64,000 nt of DNA from an uncultured Candidatus Saccharibacteria bacterium (GTDB lineage Bacteria > Patescibacteriota > Minisyncoccia > Phycocordibacterales > JACOZG01). The notes under the pieces are model-generated. The model saw nothing but the letters and a program-made list of their open reading frames with translations, searched no databases and had not been told where the DNA came from. The stretch is taken from assembly GCA_964651115.1 (NCBI GenBank), contig CAZYXJ010000001.1, forward strand, positions 286,085 to 350,084, written 5' to 3'. Position 1 is the stretch's first letter. Each line of letters starts with the position of its first letter. The position numbers were made by a program, and so were the translations under genes. Below are positions 26,320 to 59,119 of the stretch, in pieces.

Positions 26320-26393
26320 GCGCGTGTAGCTCAGTTGGTTAGAGCACCGAGCTTATACCTCGGCGGTCCTTGGTTCGACTCCAAGCACGCGCA
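26320..26393 (+). tRNA. tRNA-Ile, anticodon TAT (UAU)
   Basis: Acceptor gcgcgtg/cacgcgc. Anticodon stem ccgag/ctcgg with loop cttatac. T-arm cttgg-ttcgact-ccaag. Discriminator A. No CCA. Confidence 0.7.
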
Positions 26394-26404
26394 CTACTTG
26401 GCTT

Positions 26405-34082: not shown

Positions 34083-34133
34083 AATTTGCGTCTGGCTTTT
34101 TAGTGCTTGCACTGCGAAGCCTTGGCGAAGCAG

Positions 34134-34502
34134 TGGAGATGGCGGGAATCGAACCCGCGTCCGAATGAGTCGGTCAGTTGGAATCTACAAGTTTAGTTAA
34201 CTTTAAATTTTAAACTGTGACGATAAAAAATTAACCAAACTCGTCACAATCGAGCTCATAATTTTAGGTCTCCAACCCGAGCCGAGTTGGTTTCCGATCC
34301 TGCAAGGCAACACGGAACGGATCGAGCACAGGCACTCGGATCCGCACCGCTACATTACGCTAAAGCGAACGTAGAAGTGTAGTATGGAGATACTACACCC
34401 GTATCAGATGCGTTTGCACGTATCTGGGTGCTTGTTTTTACGAGGTCAAGCGCCTCGACCTGCTTCCTCCTGCTTCGTCAATCGTCGAAGCCGATCATCC
34501 CC
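34134..34502 (-). ncRNA. ssrA: tmRNA
   Basis: On the minus strand the 5-prime end reads GGGGATGATCGGCTTCGACG and the 3-prime end reads GGACGCGGGTTCGATTCCCGCCATCTCCACCA. An internal tag reading frame ends in ...TFALA-stop. Confidence 0.85.
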
Positions 34503-37871: not shown

Positions 37872-39266
37872 TTAACAAGGCAGCTCAAAAGTACTCCCCG
37901 GTTCGGGGGCGATCGCCTTTAAGCCGAAGTAGTCACGCAAGCGTTGGACCAAAAACAACGCCGACTTAGGCTCGCCCATCACCACAAAAACTTGCTTGAG
38001 ACTATCGGCGGTACGATGCGCAAAATCAATCAAATCGTCAGAGCCCTTGTGCGCTGAGTAACCGTTAATCGTAATCACCTTAGCGTGCACGGGCACGCGA
38101 TCACCCAAAATCGTCACACTATCAGCGCCATCCTGCAATTGGCGACCCAAACTACCGGGCGCCTGATAGCCCACCAAGAGCAAAGCACTCTTCGGATCAG
38201 GCAAATAACGCTTCTCGTGGTGGATTACTCGCCCACCATTAGACATCCCCGAACCAGCAATAATAATCTTCGGGCCACTGTGCCCGGCAATAGACTTAGA
38301 CTCGTCCGTCGTCACCGACAAGCGCAATTGAGGGAACCGAAAAATTCCCCCATCCCCCGCCACCGCTGGCGCAACTTCGTCTTTGAGATACTGGCGGGCA
38401 TACTTCTTGTAAACCGCCGTAACGTTAATCGCTAGTGGTGAGTCGATAAAAACAGGCACGAGCGGGATCCGGGAGTGCTCCATCATCTCCTCAATCTCAA
38501 ACAGCATCTCCTGAGTGCGCTCAATGGAAAAGGCGGGGATGACTAGCGCGCCACCAGCCTTCATCGTGTTTTCGATAATATCTTCTAACTTTTGCTTACG
38601 CGCGGTCCGATCCTCATGATTACGGTCGCCATAGACGCTCTCCATAATCAAATAATTTGCATCGCCAATCACTTCCGTATCCCTAAGCAGTGGCGCTGGT
38701 GAGTTGCCCAGATCGCCAGTGAAAACAATCTTCGTGCCGTTATAAACAAACTCGTACATCGTCGAGCCCAGAATGTGCCCAGCATCACGAAGCGTGGCCA
38801 CCAACTCACCATGCTCAATCGTCTCGCCGTACTCTCTAGTTTGCCACAAACGCATCGTCTCCGTCACATCAGCTTCGGTGTAGAGCAATTCGGTCTCGTG
38901 ATTACGAGCTTCTTTTTCTAAAACACCCAAACTATCGATCAAACTAAGTTCGGCAATTTCTTTAGTCGGTGGCGTCGAATAGATTTTTCCTCGAAATCCC
39001 TGATGGACCAAGCGTGGAATCCGACCAATGTGATCAAGATGGGCGTGAGTAATAAATAAGGCACTAATTGATTTAGGATCGTAACTAAAAGGATGGTAAT
39101 TAGGATCATCAGCCACGCGCGGTCCCTGCAATAGTCCACAATCAACCAGTATCTTATCGCCAGCCTCTGTTTCTAACAAAAAATTTGCCCCCGTCACCGT
39201 GCCCGCCCCGCCGCAGAATGTCAGTCGCACCTTTTTGGTATCAGCCATGGAGTAAGTATACCGCAA
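37872..39266 (-). CDS. MBL-fold beta-CASP ribonuclease (RNase J/CPSF-like)
   Basis: HxHxDH motif (ITHAHLDHIG) and a beta-CASP arrangement. Length 464 aa. Confidence 0.7.
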   Translation of the reverse strand: MRYTYSMADTKKVRLTFCGGAGTVTGANFLLETEAGDKILVDCGLLQGPRVADDPNYHPFSYDPKSISALFITHAHLDHIGRIPRLVHQGFRGKIYSTPPTKEIAELSLIDSLGVLEKEARNHETELLYTEADVTETMRLWQTREYGETIEHGELVATLRDAGHILGSTMYEFVYNGTKIVFTGDLGNSPAPLLRDTEVIGDANYLIMESVYGDRNHEDRTARKQKLEDIIENTMKAGGALVIPAFSIERTQEMLFEIEEMMEHSRIPLVPVFIDSPLAINVTAVYKKYARQYLKDEVAPAVAGDGGIFRFPQLRLSVTTDESKSIAGHSGPKIIIAGSGMSNGGRVIHHEKRYLPDPKSALLLVGYQAPGSLGRQLQDGADSVTILGDRVPVHAKVITINGYSAHKGSDDLIDFAHRTADSLKQVFVVMGEPKSALFLVQRLRDYFGLKAIAPEPGSTFELPC

Positions 39267-45970: not shown

Positions 45971-46156
45971 TTACCAAGAAGACTTCTTAATGCCTGGCAC
46001 TCGACCCTCATTGGCCAACTCCCGGAAACAAATCCGGCACAGGCCAAAGGCGCGCATAAACGCCCGCTTACGACCGCAACGGAAACAGCGCCGAACCACC
46101 CGAGTGCTAAACTTCGGGGTTTTTTTCGATCGAGCGATGACAGACGTTTTAGCCAT
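45971..46156 (-). CDS. rpsZ: 30S ribosomal protein S14 type Z (zinc-binding)
   Basis: 61 aa with CxxC...CxxC (CFRCGRK...CRIC). Confidence 0.9.
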   Translation of the reverse strand: MAKTSVIARSKKTPKFSTRVVRRCFRCGRKRAFMRAFGLCRICFRELANEGRVPGIKKSSW

Positions 46157-46222
46157 AGGCGTAGCCGCTATCCTAACAGGAGGTCAAGCGGAAGTCAACT
46201 AAATTATTAAGCAAACTAGCCA

Positions 46223-49323: not shown

Positions 49324-49665
49324 TTATTTCTTAGCTTCGGGGGTAGCGCTCGCGGCCTTAGCAGCAGCAATCTCGCTCTCGCGCTTCTTCTGCTCTAACT
49401 CCTTTTGCATCTTACCACCATGCTTAATAAACTTACGCGTCAGAGAAAACTCACCCAACTTGTGGCCGACCATATCTTCGGTCACCAAAACCTCCACGTG
49501 GTCACGACCATTGTGGACGCCGAACTTGAAGCCGACCATTTCTGGGCTGATCGAGGAGCGACGAGCCCAAGTTTTGATCACATTAGACTCGCCCGGCTTC
49601 TTACCGGCGATTTTCTTCAATAATTTGGGGTCCACATAGGGCCCCTTGGCGAGCGATCGTGACAT
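49324..49665 (-). CDS. rpsS: 30S ribosomal protein S19 with Lys/Glu-rich C-terminal extension
   Basis: S19 core [11 protein letters not shown]... plus a charged tail of about 20 aa. Confidence 0.9.
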
Positions 49666-49714
49666 AGATAAAGGAAAACACTGTCATCCACCATGGCGGA
49701 CTAGACAGTGTTCC

Positions 49715-49742
49715 ATATTAACAGAACTCTTTTCGATGTCAA
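49715..49742 (-). promoter_or_regulatory. candidate sigma70-like promoter driving rpsS and the downstream operon
   Basis: On the minus strand, TTGACA then a 16-nt spacer then TAATAT, directly upstream of rpsS. It is followed by a perfect 9-bp inverted repeat (49677..49712) and a T-rich tract. Confidence 0.45.
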
Positions 49743-49761
49743 CTAAGCCCTGTTTTTGGTC

Positions 49762-52173
49762 CTAACGAAAGAGACTGCGCAGTGACTCGGCGACGCCCGA
49801 TAGCTGCTTCCAGGCTCCCGAACTAGTTGGGCGAGCCACCGTAACTGGGCCATCCGAGAAGTCGATCGAACCGGAGGTGCACTGGCCGCCACCCGGGGTC
49901 GTTAGGTCACACACAGCGGCCAAATAGAAGGTGCCGGTAGCTTGACCCTCAGGAACAGTCCAAGTAGCCACACCAGTATTGGGGTGCTCGGGGATCAGCC
50001 AAGCCACTGGAGCGGTCTTGTTTTCGTTATAGAGGGCGATCGAAACGGAACTATTGGCCGGGAAATTGGCGCTCGTCCACTTAATCTCATAAGTCTGACC
50101 AATGGTAAAGGTTTGGGAGGCACGTGGCGAAGTGAGGCTAATGGTTGGTTCGGTCGAAGCGGGGCACTGGGGCAACGTCACACTCGCCACGGGACTAGTA
50201 CCATAAGCGGCCGAACTAACTGAATACTCAATCGTCTTACCGCCCCAGTTGGAATACTGACGAGTGGCGGTATAATTTTTACCAGCCGTCTGGATCCGCT
50301 CGCCGCCCGTAAAGTCAAAATAGCCCGTTGAGCCGCCAATCACCTTCTCTTGAAGGCGATACTCACCAGAAACGGCTGGTTCCCATTTAATCGCCACATT
50401 CTGGTAGCGACTACCGCTCTGATCCACGCACGAGGTCGTGATTTTAGGAGCCGGAACGCCAGCTACTGGCGCCGGGGCGCTACCCACCGTCACTGTAATC
50501 TGGTCAACATCTGTCCCCCCGACTCCGACGCAACTAACCTCAAAAACCTTAGTTCCGCTGCGACTGTAAGAATAGGATCTCTCACCGGAAACGCCAACCG
50601 AACTATCGTTTTCCGGATCGCTCAAAGTACAACTCGTCGCATTAGTGCTCGTCCAGCCGATGGTAAATTTAGTGTTTTGGGCCACAACCTGGTTCTGCGG
50701 ACTGGCATTGGCCGTGACGTTCACCGTCGGAGCCGCCGCTGGATTTACAATCTTGATCGGCTTATCGGAAAAGTCCCAGCGATCACCGGGACAGGTTCCG
50801 GCCACATTTACGAGGTCACAGAACACCCCTACATAGTACTCGCCCGTGGGCTGACCAGCCGGAATTGTCCACCAATAAGCGCCAGTGTTGGCTAATTCTG
50901 GCTTGATGTAAAGATTCTCACCAGAAGTGGTGTTGGTCTTCTTGAGCGTGAGGGTAATTGAGCCGTTGGCGGGAATGTTCTCCGCCGCCCACTTAATTAC
51001 ATAAGTCTTGCCGATTTCCAAGGTTTCGCCATTGTTGGGCCAGAGAATGGTCTCTTTGGAAAGAGAATCGCTCGCTGAGCCCCTCACTTTAACTTTAACC
51101 TTATTGCTAATACCTTGGGTAAACACCATATATACACTATAAGTTTTCCCTGGAATCAGGTCAGCAGGAGCAATGGCGCGAAGCAGAGTACTCCCCCATT
51201 GCGTTACCACTGCCCGGTACTGACCATCATTTTCGAAATAAACGATGGGATCTTTTGTCGGTCCAGTGCCCAACAAATTCAAGCCCTCAATAGCAAACTC
51301 AGCACCAGCATCAACAACAAAGTCATCATTGGCCTTAGAGCTAATCCTGGTTATTGCCGTAAGAGCCGTCGCGCAGGCGGGCGTCTTGAAGCTCTTAGCG
51401 CGAGAAAATTGCCCACCGGTAGAAACACGGACTAGGTAAGTGGTTTCCGGCTCAAGAGCCAAGGTGCCAATCTTATCCCAACGGGTAAAGCCTCGGAAAT
51501 CAATCGAGTTCTCTTCAGCCGAACGATTCCAGGTCTTAGTATTGTTGGCAAACGAGTCAGAACCAGGGCGAGAAATATCAACCCAGAAATATCCGTCCCC
51601 GGAAGCCCGACCACTCCAAGAAATTGAGCCGTCCAACCCCTCGTCAGTACAAGCGACGGAGACACTCGGAGTAGTGGGAACGTTAACCCGCTCGTCCACA
51701 ATCTTAAAGGTGCCATTGCTCCAATCATAGGAGTTAGCCGAACAGCGTTCGTCTACGCCCTTTTTGTCGCAAAAAATACCCAAGGTGTAAGTCCCCGGTT
51801 CAATATCTTCACTAATCGTCCAATCCCAGTTGCCAGTATTGTCTAATTCGGTTTTCACATCACTAATCTCCCCGCGGGCATCCTTAAGTGTTAGCGTCAC
51901 CACGGCGCCAGCGGGGAAATTTACGCCACTCCACACCACCGGGTAAGTTCCTTTAGTCACCAAAACTTCGCCTCCATTGGGATAGAGGAGTTGAACGCTA
52001 GGACCAGCCGCTGGCTGACTCAAGATCAGCGCGAGTTGCTCCTGGAGCTTCACAATCATCGCCTGCAGTTGAGCAATGAGAGCACTGTCGTTATTTGTCT
52101 GGGCCTGTACCAATCCCGCCCCACCCAAAACCAGAACTGCGAGCACGATCATCGCCGTCAAAAATTTCTTCAT
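49762..52173 (-). CDS. large secreted surface protein with three Cys-pair repeats of about 100 aa
   Basis: Signal peptide, a Q-rich helix, then three copies of the pattern P-NGGE-...-GxTYxIxW-...-NTG-xWxWTIP-...-GxYxLG-FCD-...-C-...-DFSD-IV. Confidence 0.7.
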   Translation of the reverse strand: MKKFLTAMIVLAVLVLGGAGLVQAQTNNDSALIAQLQAMIVKLQEQLALILSQPAAGPSVQLLYPNGGEVLVTKGTYPVVWSGVNFPAGAVVTLTLKDARGEISDVKTELDNTGNWDWTISEDIEPGTYTLGIFCDKKGVDERCSANSYDWSNGTFKIVDERVNVPTTPSVSVACTDEGLDGSISWSGRASGDGYFWVDISRPGSDSFANNTKTWNRSAEENSIDFRGFTRWDKIGTLALEPETTYLVRVSTGGQFSRAKSFKTPACATALTAITRISSKANDDFVVDAGAEFAIEGLNLLGTGPTKDPIVYFENDGQYRAVVTQWGSTLLRAIAPADLIPGKTYSVYMVFTQGISNKVKVKVRGSASDSLSKETILWPNNGETLEIGKTYVIKWAAENIPANGSITLTLKKTNTTSGENLYIKPELANTGAYWWTIPAGQPTGEYYVGVFCDLVNVAGTCPGDRWDFSDKPIKIVNPAAAPTVNVTANASPQNQVVAQNTKFTIGWTSTNATSCTLSDPENDSSVGVSGERSYSYSRSGTKVFEVSCVGVGGTDVDQITVTVGSAPAPVAGVPAPKITTSCVDQSGSRYQNVAIKWEPAVSGEYRLQEKVIGGSTGYFDFTGGERIQTAGKNYTATRQYSNWGGKTIEYSVSSAAYGTSPVASVTLPQCPASTEPTISLTSPRASQTFTIGQTYEIKWTSANFPANSSVSIALYNENKTAPVAWLIPEHPNTGVATWTVPEGQATGTFYLAAVCDLTTPGGGQCTSGSIDFSDGPVTVARPTSSGAWKQLSGVAESLRSLFR

Positions 52174-52252: not shown

Positions 52253-53056
52253 TTGTCCACAATCATGCCCTCACCGAAAAAAATTTGGCTGATTTTACTG
52301 GGCCTAGTTGGCCTCTACCTTGCCGCCTCGGCCTTGGTCTTTTTTGGTGTTAAGTACGGCTGGACCAACACGGCCGGCCTGGCTGATCCAGGCCGGCCGA
52401 CGGCGGCGGCCAACCCCGTTTGGGCCAACAACGAAGAGTGGTCAACCCTGGCCGCCGCGCTAATTAAAGATCGCTCAGTCATTGAGGCGGCCGCCGCCCA
52501 AGTCAATCTGCGTCCCCGCCTGCTAGTGGCCCTCATCGTTCCCGAACAGCTCCGCCTCTTCCACACCGAGCGAGCGGTTTTTAAACAAATCTTCGCGCCG
52601 CTAAAAATTCTCGGCAACCAGAGCCAGTTCTCCTGGGGCGTGGCCGGCTTTAAGCAAGCCACGGCCGAGCAAGTTGAGGTCCACCTCACCAATCAACAAT
52701 CCCCCTTCTATTTGGGGCCGGAATTTGAAAATTTTCTAACCTTTACCACCACCAACCCTGATCAAGAACGCTTTGAACGGCTCGTTAACGAGCGTAATCA
52801 CTTCTACTCCTATCTCTACGCGGGATTATTTACCCGTCAGATTATGGCTCAGTGGGAACGAGCGGGCTGGCCCATCAGCGATCGACCAGAAATCTTAGGC
52901 ACGCTGTTTAACATCGGTTTTGATAATTCTCACCCCAAAGCCAACCCCGTCATGGGTGGGGCGGCGATTGAGATTGCCGGCACGACCTACTCCTTTGGCC
53001 GGTTAACTTACGAATTTTACTACTCCGAACTCCTGCAAGAAATTTTTCCGCGCTAA
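52253..53056 (+). CDS. hypothetical N-terminally membrane-anchored protein (267 aa)
   Basis: TM helix IWLILLGLVGLYLAASALVFF. No recognised motif. It lies inside the insertion on the opposite strand. Confidence 0.5.
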   Translation: MSTIMPSPKKIWLILLGLVGLYLAASALVFFGVKYGWTNTAGLADPGRPTAAANPVWANNEEWSTLAAALIKDRSVIEAAAAQVNLRPRLLVALIVPEQLRLFHTERAVFKQIFAPLKILGNQSQFSWGVAGFKQATAEQVEVHLTNQQSPFYLGPEFENFLTFTTTNPDQERFERLVNERNHFYSYLYAGLFTRQIMAQWERAGWPISDRPEILGTLFNIGFDNSHPKANPVMGGAAIEIAGTTYSFGRLTYEFYYSELLQEIFPR

Positions 53057-53673
53057 CTCTGAGGGCAGATTGACTTTTGCCCCAATTGCGACCGAGCCAA
53101 CAGAGCATCACCAAGATTTAATTGACCATTAGCCGTGCCATCATACTTGGCGTTACTGCCTGCGGGGACCAAAGCAATCTTACCTTTAATGGCTAGCGCG
53201 TCGGTCATATCGACGGCCCCGTCACTATTTACGTCGCCCAAGAGATTACGAAAATAAACGTTGCGATCAGTCCCAGAAGCAGTCCCACTAATCTTGCCCG
53301 ATAACGTCACCTCATAACAACCGCCATTAGGCAAAGCACCGAGCAACAGATCCAAGCTGAGGCCATCTGGCGCCAGGGAGACCCCTACCGGCGAACTGGT
53401 CGTGCCTGTTAAGACGTGCCGGACCACAATCGGACTGCCCGTTAACTCAACCACGTCATTAAAAACTGCCCTTAACTTGGTCACTCCCCCCAACCGTGGC
53501 TCGATGGTAATCGCAGTCGTCGTCCCCGGAGCCGCCGACTTATTAAGCGTCAGCGACTGCTCACCCGCCGCACCCTGAGTCTTCACCGACGTCCAGGTTA
53601 CCGAAGTCGCCTCCCCAAAAGCCACATTCGCCCAAAGCAACAAACTTAACACCGCCAAATACTTCATAAGCAA
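53053..53673 (-). CDS. secreted protein with C-terminal dockerin-like repeats
   Basis: Signal peptide. C-terminal GDVNSDGAVDMTDALAIKGKI and DGTANGQLNLGDALLARSQL resemble the duplicated calcium-binding dockerin segment. Confidence 0.55.
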   Translation of the reverse strand: MLMKYLAVLSLLLWANVAFGEATSVTWTSVKTQGAAGEQSLTLNKSAAPGTTTAITIEPRLGGVTKLRAVFNDVVELTGSPIVVRHVLTGTTSSPVGVSLAPDGLSLDLLLGALPNGGCYEVTLSGKISGTASGTDRNVYFRNLLGDVNSDGAVDMTDALAIKGKIALVPAGSNAKYDGTANGQLNLGDALLARSQLGQKSICPQS

Positions 53674-53762
53674 AAACTAATTATTAAAGCGAACACTTCC
53701 ATAGTAGCACAAACAACCCCCGCCACTGGCGGGGGTTGTTGATAACCGAACTGAACCTAGAG

Positions 53763-54380
53763 TTAGCGAGTCGTGACTGGCTTCTCTGAGCAAGAAGCGC
53801 TGTGGCCCATGTTAAAGCGGGCAAACAGAGCGTCACCCAAATTTACTTCGCCAGTGCGATTAACGTCATAGATAGCCAAGTCCGTCGTGGTACCGATAAC
53901 GTTCTTCAGCTTAAGAACGTCAGCCCCAGAAACTAGGCCATCACCCGTAACGTCACCAGCCAAAACCTTAACGTAAACCGCCTTGTCGCCCGTCTCGGCC
54001 AAGCCATCAAAGCGCTTATTAACGTCAATTTTGTAACAAGCACCGTCAGGCAAGTTGGCATACTCAAGCTCCAAGCGCTTACCGTCGTCGCTTAAGAAGG
54101 TCGAAGTTGGACGATGAAGGATCCCGGTACTCAAGCTACGAGCATGAGTATAAACTGGGCGCTTTTGGACTGGTAAGTCAAAGTTGATCACCACCTTCTG
54201 CAAACCACCCTGCCGGGTCTCCGTCGCAGTCGCCAGCGGGCTAAGAGCCAATGATTGCTCGCCTACCACCGCGTGACTGCGGACGCTCTCCCAGCTAACT
54301 ACCGTTGCGCCAGTTGAAGCGTAGGCCAGCGTTAGGCCAAAGGCCAAAGCTGCCCCCGCGCCAATAAAGATTTTGTTCAT
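53763..54380 (-). CDS. secreted protein with C-terminal dockerin-like repeats (paralogue of 53053..53673)
   Basis: Signal peptide. C-terminal GDVTGDGLVSGADVLKLKNVI and DVNRTGEVNLGDALFARFNM. The N-terminal domain aligns with that of its neighbour. Confidence 0.55.
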   Translation of the reverse strand: MNKIFIGAGAALAFGLTLAYASTGATVVSWESVRSHAVVGEQSLALSPLATATETRQGGLQKVVINFDLPVQKRPVYTHARSLSTGILHRPTSTFLSDDGKRLELEYANLPDGACYKIDVNKRFDGLAETGDKAVYVKVLAGDVTGDGLVSGADVLKLKNVIGTTTDLAIYDVNRTGEVNLGDALFARFNMGHSASCSEKPVTTR

Positions 54381-54463: not shown

Positions 54464-55315
54464 TTAGCGACGACGATCAATCTTCTTGCGTCGACTAAGC
54501 ACCGCGCCGCGAGAATATTTCTTACGTCGGCGAGTCTTAACGCCGAAAGCGAGCTTGCCAGTTGGCGTCTTAGGGCCGCGGCGCAAACCAATGGGCTGGC
54601 GACCCTCACCACCACCGTGAGGATGGTCTACCGGGTTCATCGCGCTACCACGAACCGTGGGGCGCACGCCCAACCAACGCGAACGACCGGCCTTACCACG
54701 ACTGACCAACTTGTGTTCATCGTTAGAAACGGCGCCAACCGTGGCCCAAGACTTTTCGTTAATCTTGCGCACCTCGGTGGAAGGCATCTTAACCGTGCTG
54801 TAACCGGCGTCATTGCCCAAAATCTGAGCGAAACTGCCCGCCGAGCGCACCAGTCGAGCCCCGCCAGCTGGTTGAACTTCGATATTGTAAATAAAAGTAC
54901 CTACCGGGATCTTGTAAAGAGGCAGGCGATTACCGGGTTTAGCATCAGCTTCAACCGAAGCAACAAACTGGTCCCCGACCTTAACCCCACCAGGCAACAA
55001 GACATAACGGCGAGTACCGTCAGCATAAACAACCAAACCAATAAAACCGGAACGGTTAGGATCGTACTCGATCGTCTCCACGCGAGCGGGAATATTTTTC
55101 TTGTCGTAAGAAAATTCGATTTCGCGATAGAGGCGCTTGTGGCCACCACCTTTATGACGAGTAGTGATCCGGCCATCAGCGTTGCGACCAAAGGCGCGCT
55201 TGCGACCATAAGTCAAAGACTTATGTGGCTCCGAGGCCGACAAGGTCTTGCGATAATCAATCGAAATCAGCTCGCGTCGACCGGGACTAGTAGGTTTGTA
55301 TTTTTTCGTGGCCAT
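54464..55315 (-). CDS. rplB: 50S ribosomal protein L2
   Basis: 283 aa with ...HPHGGGEGR... the conserved L2 motif. Confidence 0.95.
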   Translation of the reverse strand: MATKKYKPTSPGRRELISIDYRKTLSASEPHKSLTYGRKRAFGRNADGRITTRHKGGGHKRLYREIEFSYDKKNIPARVETIEYDPNRSGFIGLVVYADGTRRYVLLPGGVKVGDQFVASVEADAKPGNRLPLYKIPVGTFIYNIEVQPAGGARLVRSAGSFAQILGNDAGYSTVKMPSTEVRKINEKSWATVGAVSNDEHKLVSRGKAGRSRWLGVRPTVRGSAMNPVDHPHGGGEGRQPIGLRRGPKTPTGKLAFGVKTRRRKKYSRGAVLSRRKKIDRRR

Positions 55316-58579: not shown

Positions 58580-58608
58580 ATCCTAGCAGAGACGAGAAAG
58601 ATGTCAAA
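58580..58608 (-). promoter_or_regulatory. candidate sigma70-like promoter for tuf
   Basis: On the minus strand, TTGACA then a 17-nt spacer then TAGGAT. It lies immediately after the cassette terminator. Confidence 0.35.
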
Positions 58609-58615
58609 TGGGCCG

Positions 58616-58645
58616 CGAAAAAGGCGTCCTCAATTGAGGACGCCT
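58616..58645 (-). terminator. rho-independent terminator of the small cassette gene
   Basis: Perfect 10-bp stem aggcgtcctc-aatt-gaggacgcct, then TTTTT on the minus strand. Confidence 0.5.
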
Positions 58646-58678
58646 GGGGCGTGACGCTGCCCCGATTACAGTCTTGAC

Positions 58679-58930
58679 TCACACCAGAAGCCAGTAGCCC
58701 GGCGCGAGCGCGAGGCGCTCGGAGCGGCCCGGATGGGCCGAGAGCGGCGGCGAAGCGCGCGCGGGCGCCTCCGTGGTGAGCGCGGGTCTCAGATGGATCG
58801 CCGGCGCCCACGTGGCGCTCGGAGACACGATTGCCGTTGAAGTATGCAACCCACTCCCTGCGGTCTCTGCCGGCGGCGGCAAGCACCACGGCAAAGCCAA
58901 ACAGAAGGCCACAACCAAGAACAGCCGCAT
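58679..58930 (-). CDS. small secreted Pro/Ala-rich protein (83 aa) in a high-GC insert
   Basis: ATG at 58930 preceded by CAGGAGGTGACC. Product MRLFLVVAFCLALPWCLPPPAETAGSG... has a signal peptide. Local GC is well above the neighbouring sequence. Confidence 0.4.
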   Translation of the reverse strand: MRLFLVVAFCLALPWCLPPPAETAGSGLHTSTAIVSPSATWAPAIHLRPALTTEAPARASPPLSAHPGRSERLALAPGYWLLV

Positions 58931-59119
58931 GGTCACCTCCTGAAAATAAAAGTGCAAACCCACCCTAGAACACTGGGAGAACTGTAAGGGAAGACCTACT
59001 TAGGATCACCTACCTTTCTTGGTTAGACAATTCATAGTACAGTCTCCCGAGCCCAACTCCTACAAGCTGAGCAATCTGGGAATTAGCGTAACGCAAACTG
59101 CGCTAGAGCGCAAGAGTCC

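Follow-up and report, generated by a model that had tools for sequence, protein, structure and literature searches.

An internal promoter of the rpsS-led ribosomal-protein unit, plausibly ancestral to a Parcubacteria/Paceibacteria subclade, and its conserved, perhaps 5'-protecting, leader hairpin

The DNA analysed here, referred to throughout as the window, is a stretch of 64,000 nt from a genome of the Patescibacteria that is Parcubacteria/Paceibacteria-like. On its minus strand the genes fusA, tuf, rpsJ, rplC, rplD, rplW, rplB, an insert, rpsS, rplV, rpsC and the rest of the ribosomal-protein genes follow one another in that order. The insert, which parts rplB from rpsS, is 4.8 kb long and carries four genes. 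The features of the region, in the direction of rpsS transcription, are these:

54464-55315, minus strand: rplB
53763-54380 and 53053-53673, minus strand: two paralogous dockerin-domain genes of the insert
53712-53740: strong terminator past the first dockerin gene
52265-53056, strand opposite to rpsS: gene without a Pfam match
49762-52173, minus strand: gene for an 803-aa secreted protein with a Kre9/KNH domain, directly upstream of the rpsS promoter
49737-49742, minus strand: -35 hexamer TTGACA, in which TTGAC is invariant across 32 aligned rpsS leaders
49715-49723, minus strand: extended -10 element (TG at 49723-49722, one base, TAATAT at 49720-49715), in which TA...T is invariant in the 32 leaders
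49708-49710, minus strand: predicted transcription start, the fifth to seventh nucleotide past the -10 element, A49709 being the most likely
49704-49712, minus strand: 5' arm of the outer stem, aacactgtc, specific to the window genome and absent from all relatives
49686-49701, minus strand: predicted inner hairpin of 6 bp, GUCCGC-CAUG-GUGGAU, from folding and from covariation across loci
49677-49685, minus strand: 3' arm of the outer stem, gacagtgtt, an exact inverted repeat of the 5' arm
49666-49676, minus strand: T-rich tail of 11 nt, ttcctttatct, reaching up to the start codon
49324-49665, minus strand: rpsS (S19), from the ORF map and a match to Pfam Ribosomal_S19 (E = 4e-33), heading the promoter-led unit rpsS-rplV-rpsC-...

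A near-consensus TTGACA-16-TAATAT promoter had been predicted upstream of rpsS, and such a site is indeed present on the minus strand at 49742-49715, with a spacer of 16 nt between the two hexamers and, in addition, an extended -10 element. The promoter scan scored it as a 10/12 match with TG ahead of the -10 hexamer; promoter-like matches in the region as a whole numbered 16, against 11.6 +/- 3.6 in shuffled sequence, and were not above chance. The predicted start follows from the usual distance of 6-8 nt between -10 element and transcription start. An independent contig from a different sample (locus L081, Logan SRR14271375) carries an identical rpsS leader. The site is very likely a real promoter of the ordinary sigma-70 type. 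Translation of rpsS would begin at an ATG at 49665-49663, and the tail at 49666-49676 contains no Shine-Dalgarno sequence.

The outer inverted repeat is perfect over 9 bp, with four G-C pairs (44% G+C) and arms 18 nt apart. It had been described as closing a loop of 18 nt; the repeat itself stands, but these 18 nt hold a second hairpin rather than a loop. The structure does lie, as predicted, at the presumed start of the transcript, the outer stem spanning approximately A49709, and a T-rich tract does follow it, though an interrupted one (TTTTCCTTTATCT, spanning 49678-49666; directly past the stem the tract reads UUUUCCUUUAUCU). For the composite structure folding gives -21.5 kcal/mol (z = -4.6), a value matched by none of 200 shuffles, and within a context of 111 nt its z-score is -2.7. 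In RNA reading through from the 803-aa gene the outer 5' arm can be extended to G49714 by G-U pairs, giving the full fold of 11+6 bp at -21.5 kcal/mol followed by UUUUCCUUU; RNA starting at about A49709 keeps a stem of 6-7 bp (6+6 bp) at its 5' end, at -14.3 kcal/mol, followed by UUUU. Inverted repeats that pair perfectly over 9 bp or more around a loop of 3-30 nt are fivefold commoner in the window than in dinucleotide shuffles (30 against 6.0 +/- 2.3), and for this reason the rpsS hairpin is unlikely to be a product of chance.

Two further readings of the hairpin were considered and rejected. The arms do not belong to a repeat or mobile element, since the only two exact copies of the 9-mer within the window are the arms themselves and matches with one mismatch occur at chance level. 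Nor is a hairpin a generic companion of promoters in this genome, since among the 10 strict sites in the window (TTGACn-16/17-TAnnnT) only that of rpsS is followed by a strong one.

To place the element in context, 160 loci around S19 homologues were taken from genome and metagenome collections. The window S19 is 78-85% identical to its best matches, which come from metagenome-assembled genomes (MAGs) under names such as Zambryskibacteria. Across most bacteria, and most of the other lineages of the Patescibacteria (among those checked were Niyogi-, Falkow-, Buchanan-, Berkel-, Peri-, Gracili- and Dojkabacteria), rplB and rpsS lie 6-100 nt apart with no promoter-like site between them. In the closest group (Zambryski-, Nomura-, Taylor- and Kaiserbacteria and MAGs of Paceibacterota, with S19 66-85% identical) the gap is 150-3658 bp. 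At least 31 relatives with S19 66-83% identical to that of the window carry the same module of promoter and hairpin before rpsS. In these 31 the promoter has the form TTGACw, a spacer of 16-17 nt, often TGn, and TAnnAT, and the hairpin, short and rich in G+C, has a stem of 5-9 bp and a loop of 3-7 nt that is not conserved in sequence; there are no conserved bulges. The gap from the -10 element to the stem is 4-9 nt and amounts to 6 or 7 nt in 24 of the 31, the stem then opening at the seventh or eighth nucleotide. This distance is tightly constrained, whereas that from hairpin to ATG is not (5-141 nt). The first base of the stem is a purine in 24 of 31 loci, and where it is C (six loci) an A stands just before it in four. 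The 8 nt past the stem are 69% T, as against 31% in the rest of the leader, and in several relatives this tract begins with A, GA or UA. That promoter and predicted hairpin are kept at the same position in relatives is the decisive evidence against chance.

The stems themselves fall into at least eight classes (AAGCTC/GAGCTT, GTCCCGC/GCGGGAT, TAGTCCGCC/GGCGGATTA, CCCGC/GCGGG, CGCTC/GAGCG, CGCC/GGCG, AACGCC/GGCGTT and AGCCC/GGGCT), the largest of them being fairly uniform in sequence (AAGCTCgttagGAGCTTTTTgTTTAc). Locus L001 and the window's inner hairpin have the 8-mer AGTCCGCC in common, and this inner hairpin is clearly homologous to the hairpin conserved in the rpsS leaders. The outer 9-bp stem occurs in the window only, where it would lengthen the conserved hairpin from a point right past the -10 element. 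Another lengthened hairpin, in locus L091, lies in a leader whose fold is not significant (z = -1.0). A variant leader was seen in a subgroup of four loci (L003, L008, L020 and L034), which keep the promoter as TTGACA-17-TAGTAT; three of these loci have a longer leader (137-144 nt in L003 and L034), and three have a weaker hairpin that begins 11-12 nt past the -10 element.

Several lines of evidence suggest that the hairpin forms in RNA. Across 39 loci with a promoter-like site before rpsS, which were not selected for hairpins and in each of which 30 nt from 4 nt past the -10 element were folded, the mean z-score was -2.16, and 27 of the 39 fell below -1.64. A covariance model built from the leader alignment found 68 matches in 700 kb, all of them on the coding strand of the ribosomal-protein genes. 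In an alignment fitted to that model, on which the covariation counts accordingly rest, 81% of cells were paired, as against 65% in shuffles, and 47 cells had changed on both sides, as against 17. Neither the pairing nor the double changes were reached in any of 500 shuffles, and every slid control fell well below them; as the loci are phylogenetically related, their p-values are not independent of one another. G-U pairs number 14 in the stems, and in 23 of 32 hairpins the fold of the sense strand is better than that of the antisense strand (Wilcoxon p = 0.009), these hairpins having been picked on the sense strand. The G-U pairs and the strand asymmetry point to an RNA on the coding strand rather than to a palindrome in the DNA. 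What is conserved in the predicted rpsS-leader hairpin is thus base pairing, not sequence.

The original prediction regarded the element as a new, as it were engineered, promoter placed in front of rpsS after the insertion, and in this respect it did not hold. The same module is present in at least 31 relatives, and in two of them, L018 and L097, it occupies the same intergenic region in the absence of any inserted gene (the closest S19 overall is 85% identical). There the module is complete within a rplB-rpsS spacer of 151-158 bp that contains only a terminator for rplB and the promoter module. Since at least 31 relatives carry the module, two of them without an inserted gene, the module predates the insert. 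In other relatives the rplB-rpsS gap is 338-3658 bp and is filled with unrelated genes. Cargo was found in slots that include those of L004, L009, L016, L032, L084, L085, L096 and L098, several of the ORFs having no match; those assigned were:

L084, and L098 by sequence similarity: prokaryotic diacylglycerol kinase DgkA
L032: PemK/MazF toxin
L085: peptidoglycan-binding acidic-repeat protein
L004: 692-aa secreted protein with PKD and Kre9/KNH domains, of the same general kind as the product of the 803-aa gene

The likeness between the 803-aa protein and its counterpart in L004 is confined to the Kre9/KNH-type (Ig-like) domains, over which BLASTP gave approximately 30% identity, and in a tblastn search of the relatives, with 1e-5 as the cut-off, homologues of the insert genes turned up solely in the same organism (L081). 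Promoter and predicted hairpin are accordingly ancestral to the clade, and the rplB|rpsS junction is a pre-existing operon boundary that has collected cargo. The inserted genes are then, judging by these comparisons, later cargo in an older boundary and not the cause of the promoter, and it is probably the pre-existing break in the operon that makes the site tolerant of insertions. An old boundary with a promoter of its own explains how accessory genes (for surface proteins, DgkA or MazF) can sit harmlessly inside the most conserved gene cluster of bacteria.

The module is not confined to rpsS. The same architecture, with the same spacing of 6-7 nt and with other stems, was found before three further genes of the cluster:

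tuf, eight loci: L007:1890, L009:1227, L018:2526, L092:1297, L096:877, L097:1546, L098:881 and L105:784
rpsN, four loci: L015:8423, L023:11133, L032:12047 and L105:10239
rplC, one locus: L004:2045

The stems before tuf read AACTGCA...TGCAGTT or a close variant of it in seven of the eight loci, and matches to the covariance model recur approximately 5 kb upstream and approximately 4 kb downstream of rpsS. Modules before tuf, rpsS and rpsN imply that in this clade the supercluster consists of three or more promoter-led units, and they give further reason to regard the rplB|rpsS junction as an ancestral operon boundary. The boundaries of these units, rplB|rpsS and rplE|rpsN, differ from the S10/spc boundary of E. 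coli. As other operons use other stems and the loops are not conserved, the role of the hairpin looks generic and not gene-specific. Promoter-like sites are present in the window, too, at these three positions (tuf at 58607, rpsS at 49742 and rpsN at 46198); a clean hairpin at +1 accompanies the rpsS site only, and the module is therefore not universal in the window genome.

Some peculiarities of these neighbouring sites may be recorded here. An unusual -10 element, TAGGAT, occurs on the minus strand at 58607-58580 (tuf), 54454-54427 (first dockerin gene) and 46198-46170 (rpsN), and likewise in the rpsS promoter of L088. At the rpsN site (46156-46198, minus strand) only 13 nt separate the -10 element from the ATG, which would leave the mRNA almost without a leader; the relatives have their rpsN start codon 121-167 nt past the -35 element. 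Between fusA and tuf there is a 94-aa ORF without a Pfam match (58622-58963, minus strand), followed, just upstream of the tuf promoter, by a terminator-like hairpin that is a 13-bp palindrome.

The claim that rpsS and the distal genes are uncoupled from the inserted genes fared better than that of a recent origin. Read-through from rplB cannot supply rpsS, since it is broken by the terminator (53712-53740) and by the gene on the other strand (52265-53056), and rpsS has a predicted promoter of its own. (The second dockerin gene and the opposite-strand gene converge with overlapping stop codons at 53053-53056 and have no terminator between them.) The stop codon of the 803-aa gene lies 19 nt from the -35 element, again with no terminator between. 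Of 31 relatives, 11 have a terminator at least as strong as -12 kcal/mol in the 60 nt upstream of the -35 element, and L004, with its similar gene in the same slot, has a strong terminator of its own just ahead of the -35 element. Because these 11 have separate terminators, the hairpin is not required to terminate upstream genes in the relatives. In the window it is plausible that the lengthened stem serves as the sole, leaky, putative terminator for read-through from the 803-aa gene. Like the terminators of the window genome (53712-53740, 35307-35342 and 10956-10987), the composite hairpin begins with AACAC and ends with GTGTT followed by T residues, and it lies right after the stop codon of a gene. 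Those terminators, however, have perfect G+C-rich stems of 12-16 bp with loops of 1-5 nt, whereas the composite is made of a 9-bp outer stem and an inner hairpin and sits downstream of a promoter; the terminator scan of the window region did not call it, and the outer stem would qualify as a terminator hairpin only when taken with the inner one, as the structure of 11+6 bp. A dual use, as 5' stem-loop for rpsS and as leaky terminator for the 803-aa gene, would be a reasonable inference from the two predicted folds, and to this extent it agrees with the original prediction.

We favour, with modest confidence, the interpretation that the site is the ancestral internal promoter of a rpsS-led ribosomal-protein unit in a subclade of the Parcubacteria/Paceibacteria, and that it is joined to a conserved, 5'-protecting leader. 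The narrower proposal, that the rpsS-leader hairpin is a 5'-terminal stabilising stem-loop, we regard as about evenly balanced. The tightly fixed distance from the -10 element implies that the first base of the stem falls at, or next to, the predicted +1. In the rpsS RNA the hairpin would thus occupy the extreme 5' terminus, where it would most likely shield the 5' triphosphate end from 5'-end-dependent decay in the manner of the ompA, papA and aprE stem-loops; with its 5' end shielded, the mRNA of this highly expressed operon would be long-lived. Structure at the 5' terminus is known to stabilize mRNA, paired 5' ends blocking the entry of RppH and of RNase E/J (PMC3997798, section 6, with references 92-95 and 109 therein). 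The window encodes, at 37872-39266 on the minus strand, a 464-aa metallo-beta-lactamase/beta-CASP/RMMBL protein of the CPSF/RNase J superfamily, a candidate RNA-degrading enzyme, the presence of which fits 5'-end-dependent decay and lends the idea weak support. Two points tell against pure stabilization. The T-run past the stem is not needed for it and resembles that of a small intrinsic terminator, and in the window the strong composite hairpin with its U-tract would also face transcripts from the promoter's own start.

The main rival to the stabilizer is a promoter-proximal attenuator, in which a weak intrinsic terminator approximately 25 nt into the transcript would abort a tunable fraction of rpsS, tuf and rpsN transcripts, with NusA, NusG, a ribosomal protein (as L4 at the E. 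coli S10 leader) or the NTP supply as modulators. We consider attenuation possible, if on balance unlikely. The enrichment of T past the stem (69% against 31%), the A-rich discriminator and U-rich tail that flank the stem as in bidirectional terminators, the recurrence of the module at three translation-gene promoters, and the window's own-promoter fold, still -14.3 kcal/mol and followed by UUUU, would all be expected of it. The stems, however, are weak in most loci (-4 to -8 kcal/mol, against -12 to -24 kcal/mol for real terminators there); the strongest hairpins (L001, L002, L083 and L084) are followed by A or UA and by tracts with only 3-5 T in 8 nt, although the trend for strong stems to avoid U-tracts was not significant (rho = 0.26, p = 0.15); a leader of 28-50 nt is too short to accommodate an alternative, antiterminating fold; and the strict distance from the -10 element finds no explanation in attenuation. 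A bolder version would see in the hairpin and U-tract an undescribed, factor-dependent attenuator that marks the start of each tuf, rpsS and rpsN unit, the window extension terminating the accessory gene as well. We hold this to be quite improbable; were it true, one short RNA signal would set the output of all ribosomal-protein units together in bacteria with minimal regulatory repertoires. A leader of the autoregulatory type, in which a protein of the operon (S19, L22, S3 or another) binds the hairpin as a mimic of an rRNA site and represses the operon, would suit the location in the 5' leader of a ribosomal-protein operon, the conservation of structure with covariation, and the fairly conserved sequence of the largest stem class (AAGCTCgttagGAGCTTTTTgTTTAc). 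It is nevertheless very unlikely, given that the loops vary both in length (3-7 nt) and in sequence, that no bulge is conserved, that Rfam yields no matching family even at E up to 10, and that the same architecture with other stems stands before tuf, a gene not known to be controlled in such a manner. Nor does the survey of such leaders in PMC7247131 contain a rpsS-led leader of this kind.

The remaining rivals concern the origin of the element and the level at which it acts. That promoter and hairpin arose, or were selected, only after the 4.8-kb insertion, to restart and insulate the distal S10/spc genes, would accord with the loss of co-transcription with rplB that the insert does cause, with the restriction of the outer 9-bp stem to the window genome and with the lack of a terminator belonging to the 803-aa gene. 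It is highly improbable, since at least 31 relatives, whether they have other cargo or no cargo at all, conserve promoter and inner hairpin at this very position, and since the 8-mer is shared with L001; the extension by the outer stem is the one part that can be younger than the insert. An element acting in the DNA, namely a palindromic operator for a dimeric repressor overlapping +1, would account for a palindrome at a fixed distance from the -10 element. However, the half-site changes completely between stem classes, the spacer varies from 3 to 7 nt, the G-U pairs occur on the sense strand only and the folding is strand-asymmetric; the operator was rejected on the turnover of stem classes, the variable spacer and the sense-strand G-U pairs. 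Chance, for its part, is excluded by the excess of inverted repeats and by the folding of the 39 loci, and operator and chance together appear hardly credible.

The 5' hairpins of ompA and papA in E. coli and of aprE in B. subtilis are the nearest counterparts of the leader envisaged under 5' protection. They share with it a position at, or 1-2 nt from, the 5' end (here a predicted one), a premium on structure over sequence, a highly expressed mRNA and independence of the distance to the start codon. Unlike them, the rpsS hairpin has a conserved U-rich run and recurs at several operon starts of one supercluster, and its stabilising role is a proposed one. The S10 operon leader of E. coli is the site of L4-mediated, NusA-dependent attenuation. 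It, too, is the leader of a ribosomal-protein unit with a hairpin and U-tract before the first cistron, and the rpsS element could likewise lower downstream transcription; however, the E. coli leader is approximately 170 nt long, whereas the rpsS element is a single hairpin of approximately 17-25 nt that precedes rpsS, not rpsJ. In contrast to that leader and to other ribosomal-protein leaders, it lacks an Rfam match and conserved loops and occurs before tuf as well. The candidate L2 leader of the Alphaproteobacteria (upstream of rplB-rpsS-rplV-rpsC; PMC7247131) resembles it in lying inside the S10 cluster near rplB and rpsS, and differs in lineage, in its position before rplB and in structure. 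The same survey contains no rpsS-led motif in the Patescibacteria lineage, and a search for literature linking Patescibacteria or Parcubacteria with ribosomal-protein leaders or the S10 operon found none.

The covariance models of Rfam 15 had no match over the window at the gathering score, and at E up to 10 the sole match in the interval 49560-49860 was to an sRNA, on the opposite strand and spurious (E = 1.8). A site for BoxA/Nus-factor antitermination was rejected as not conserved across the 31 leaders: a box resembling BoxA (GCUCUUUAACAA) occurred in one of them only (L097, as GCTCTTTA), within stem and loop. The hairpin belongs to a known kind, the 5'-terminal leader stem-loop, with a terminator-like flavour, and no new kind of mechanism is invoked. 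It is also a candidate lineage-specific cis-acting RNA motif absent from Rfam, marked by its occurrence at three operon starts, by covariation and by a fixed distance from the promoter, and it offers a concrete target in uncultured Patescibacteria, whose promoters and control at the mRNA level are essentially unmapped.

Two further RNA genes in the window deserve mention. The plus strand encodes at 26320-26394 a tRNA-Ile with the anticodon UAU, which is uncommon in bacteria, where AUA is mostly read by a lysidine-modified CAU tRNA. On the minus strand, at 34131-34502, lies a tmRNA gene whose predicted tag peptide is long (ANASDTGVVSPYYTSTFALA).
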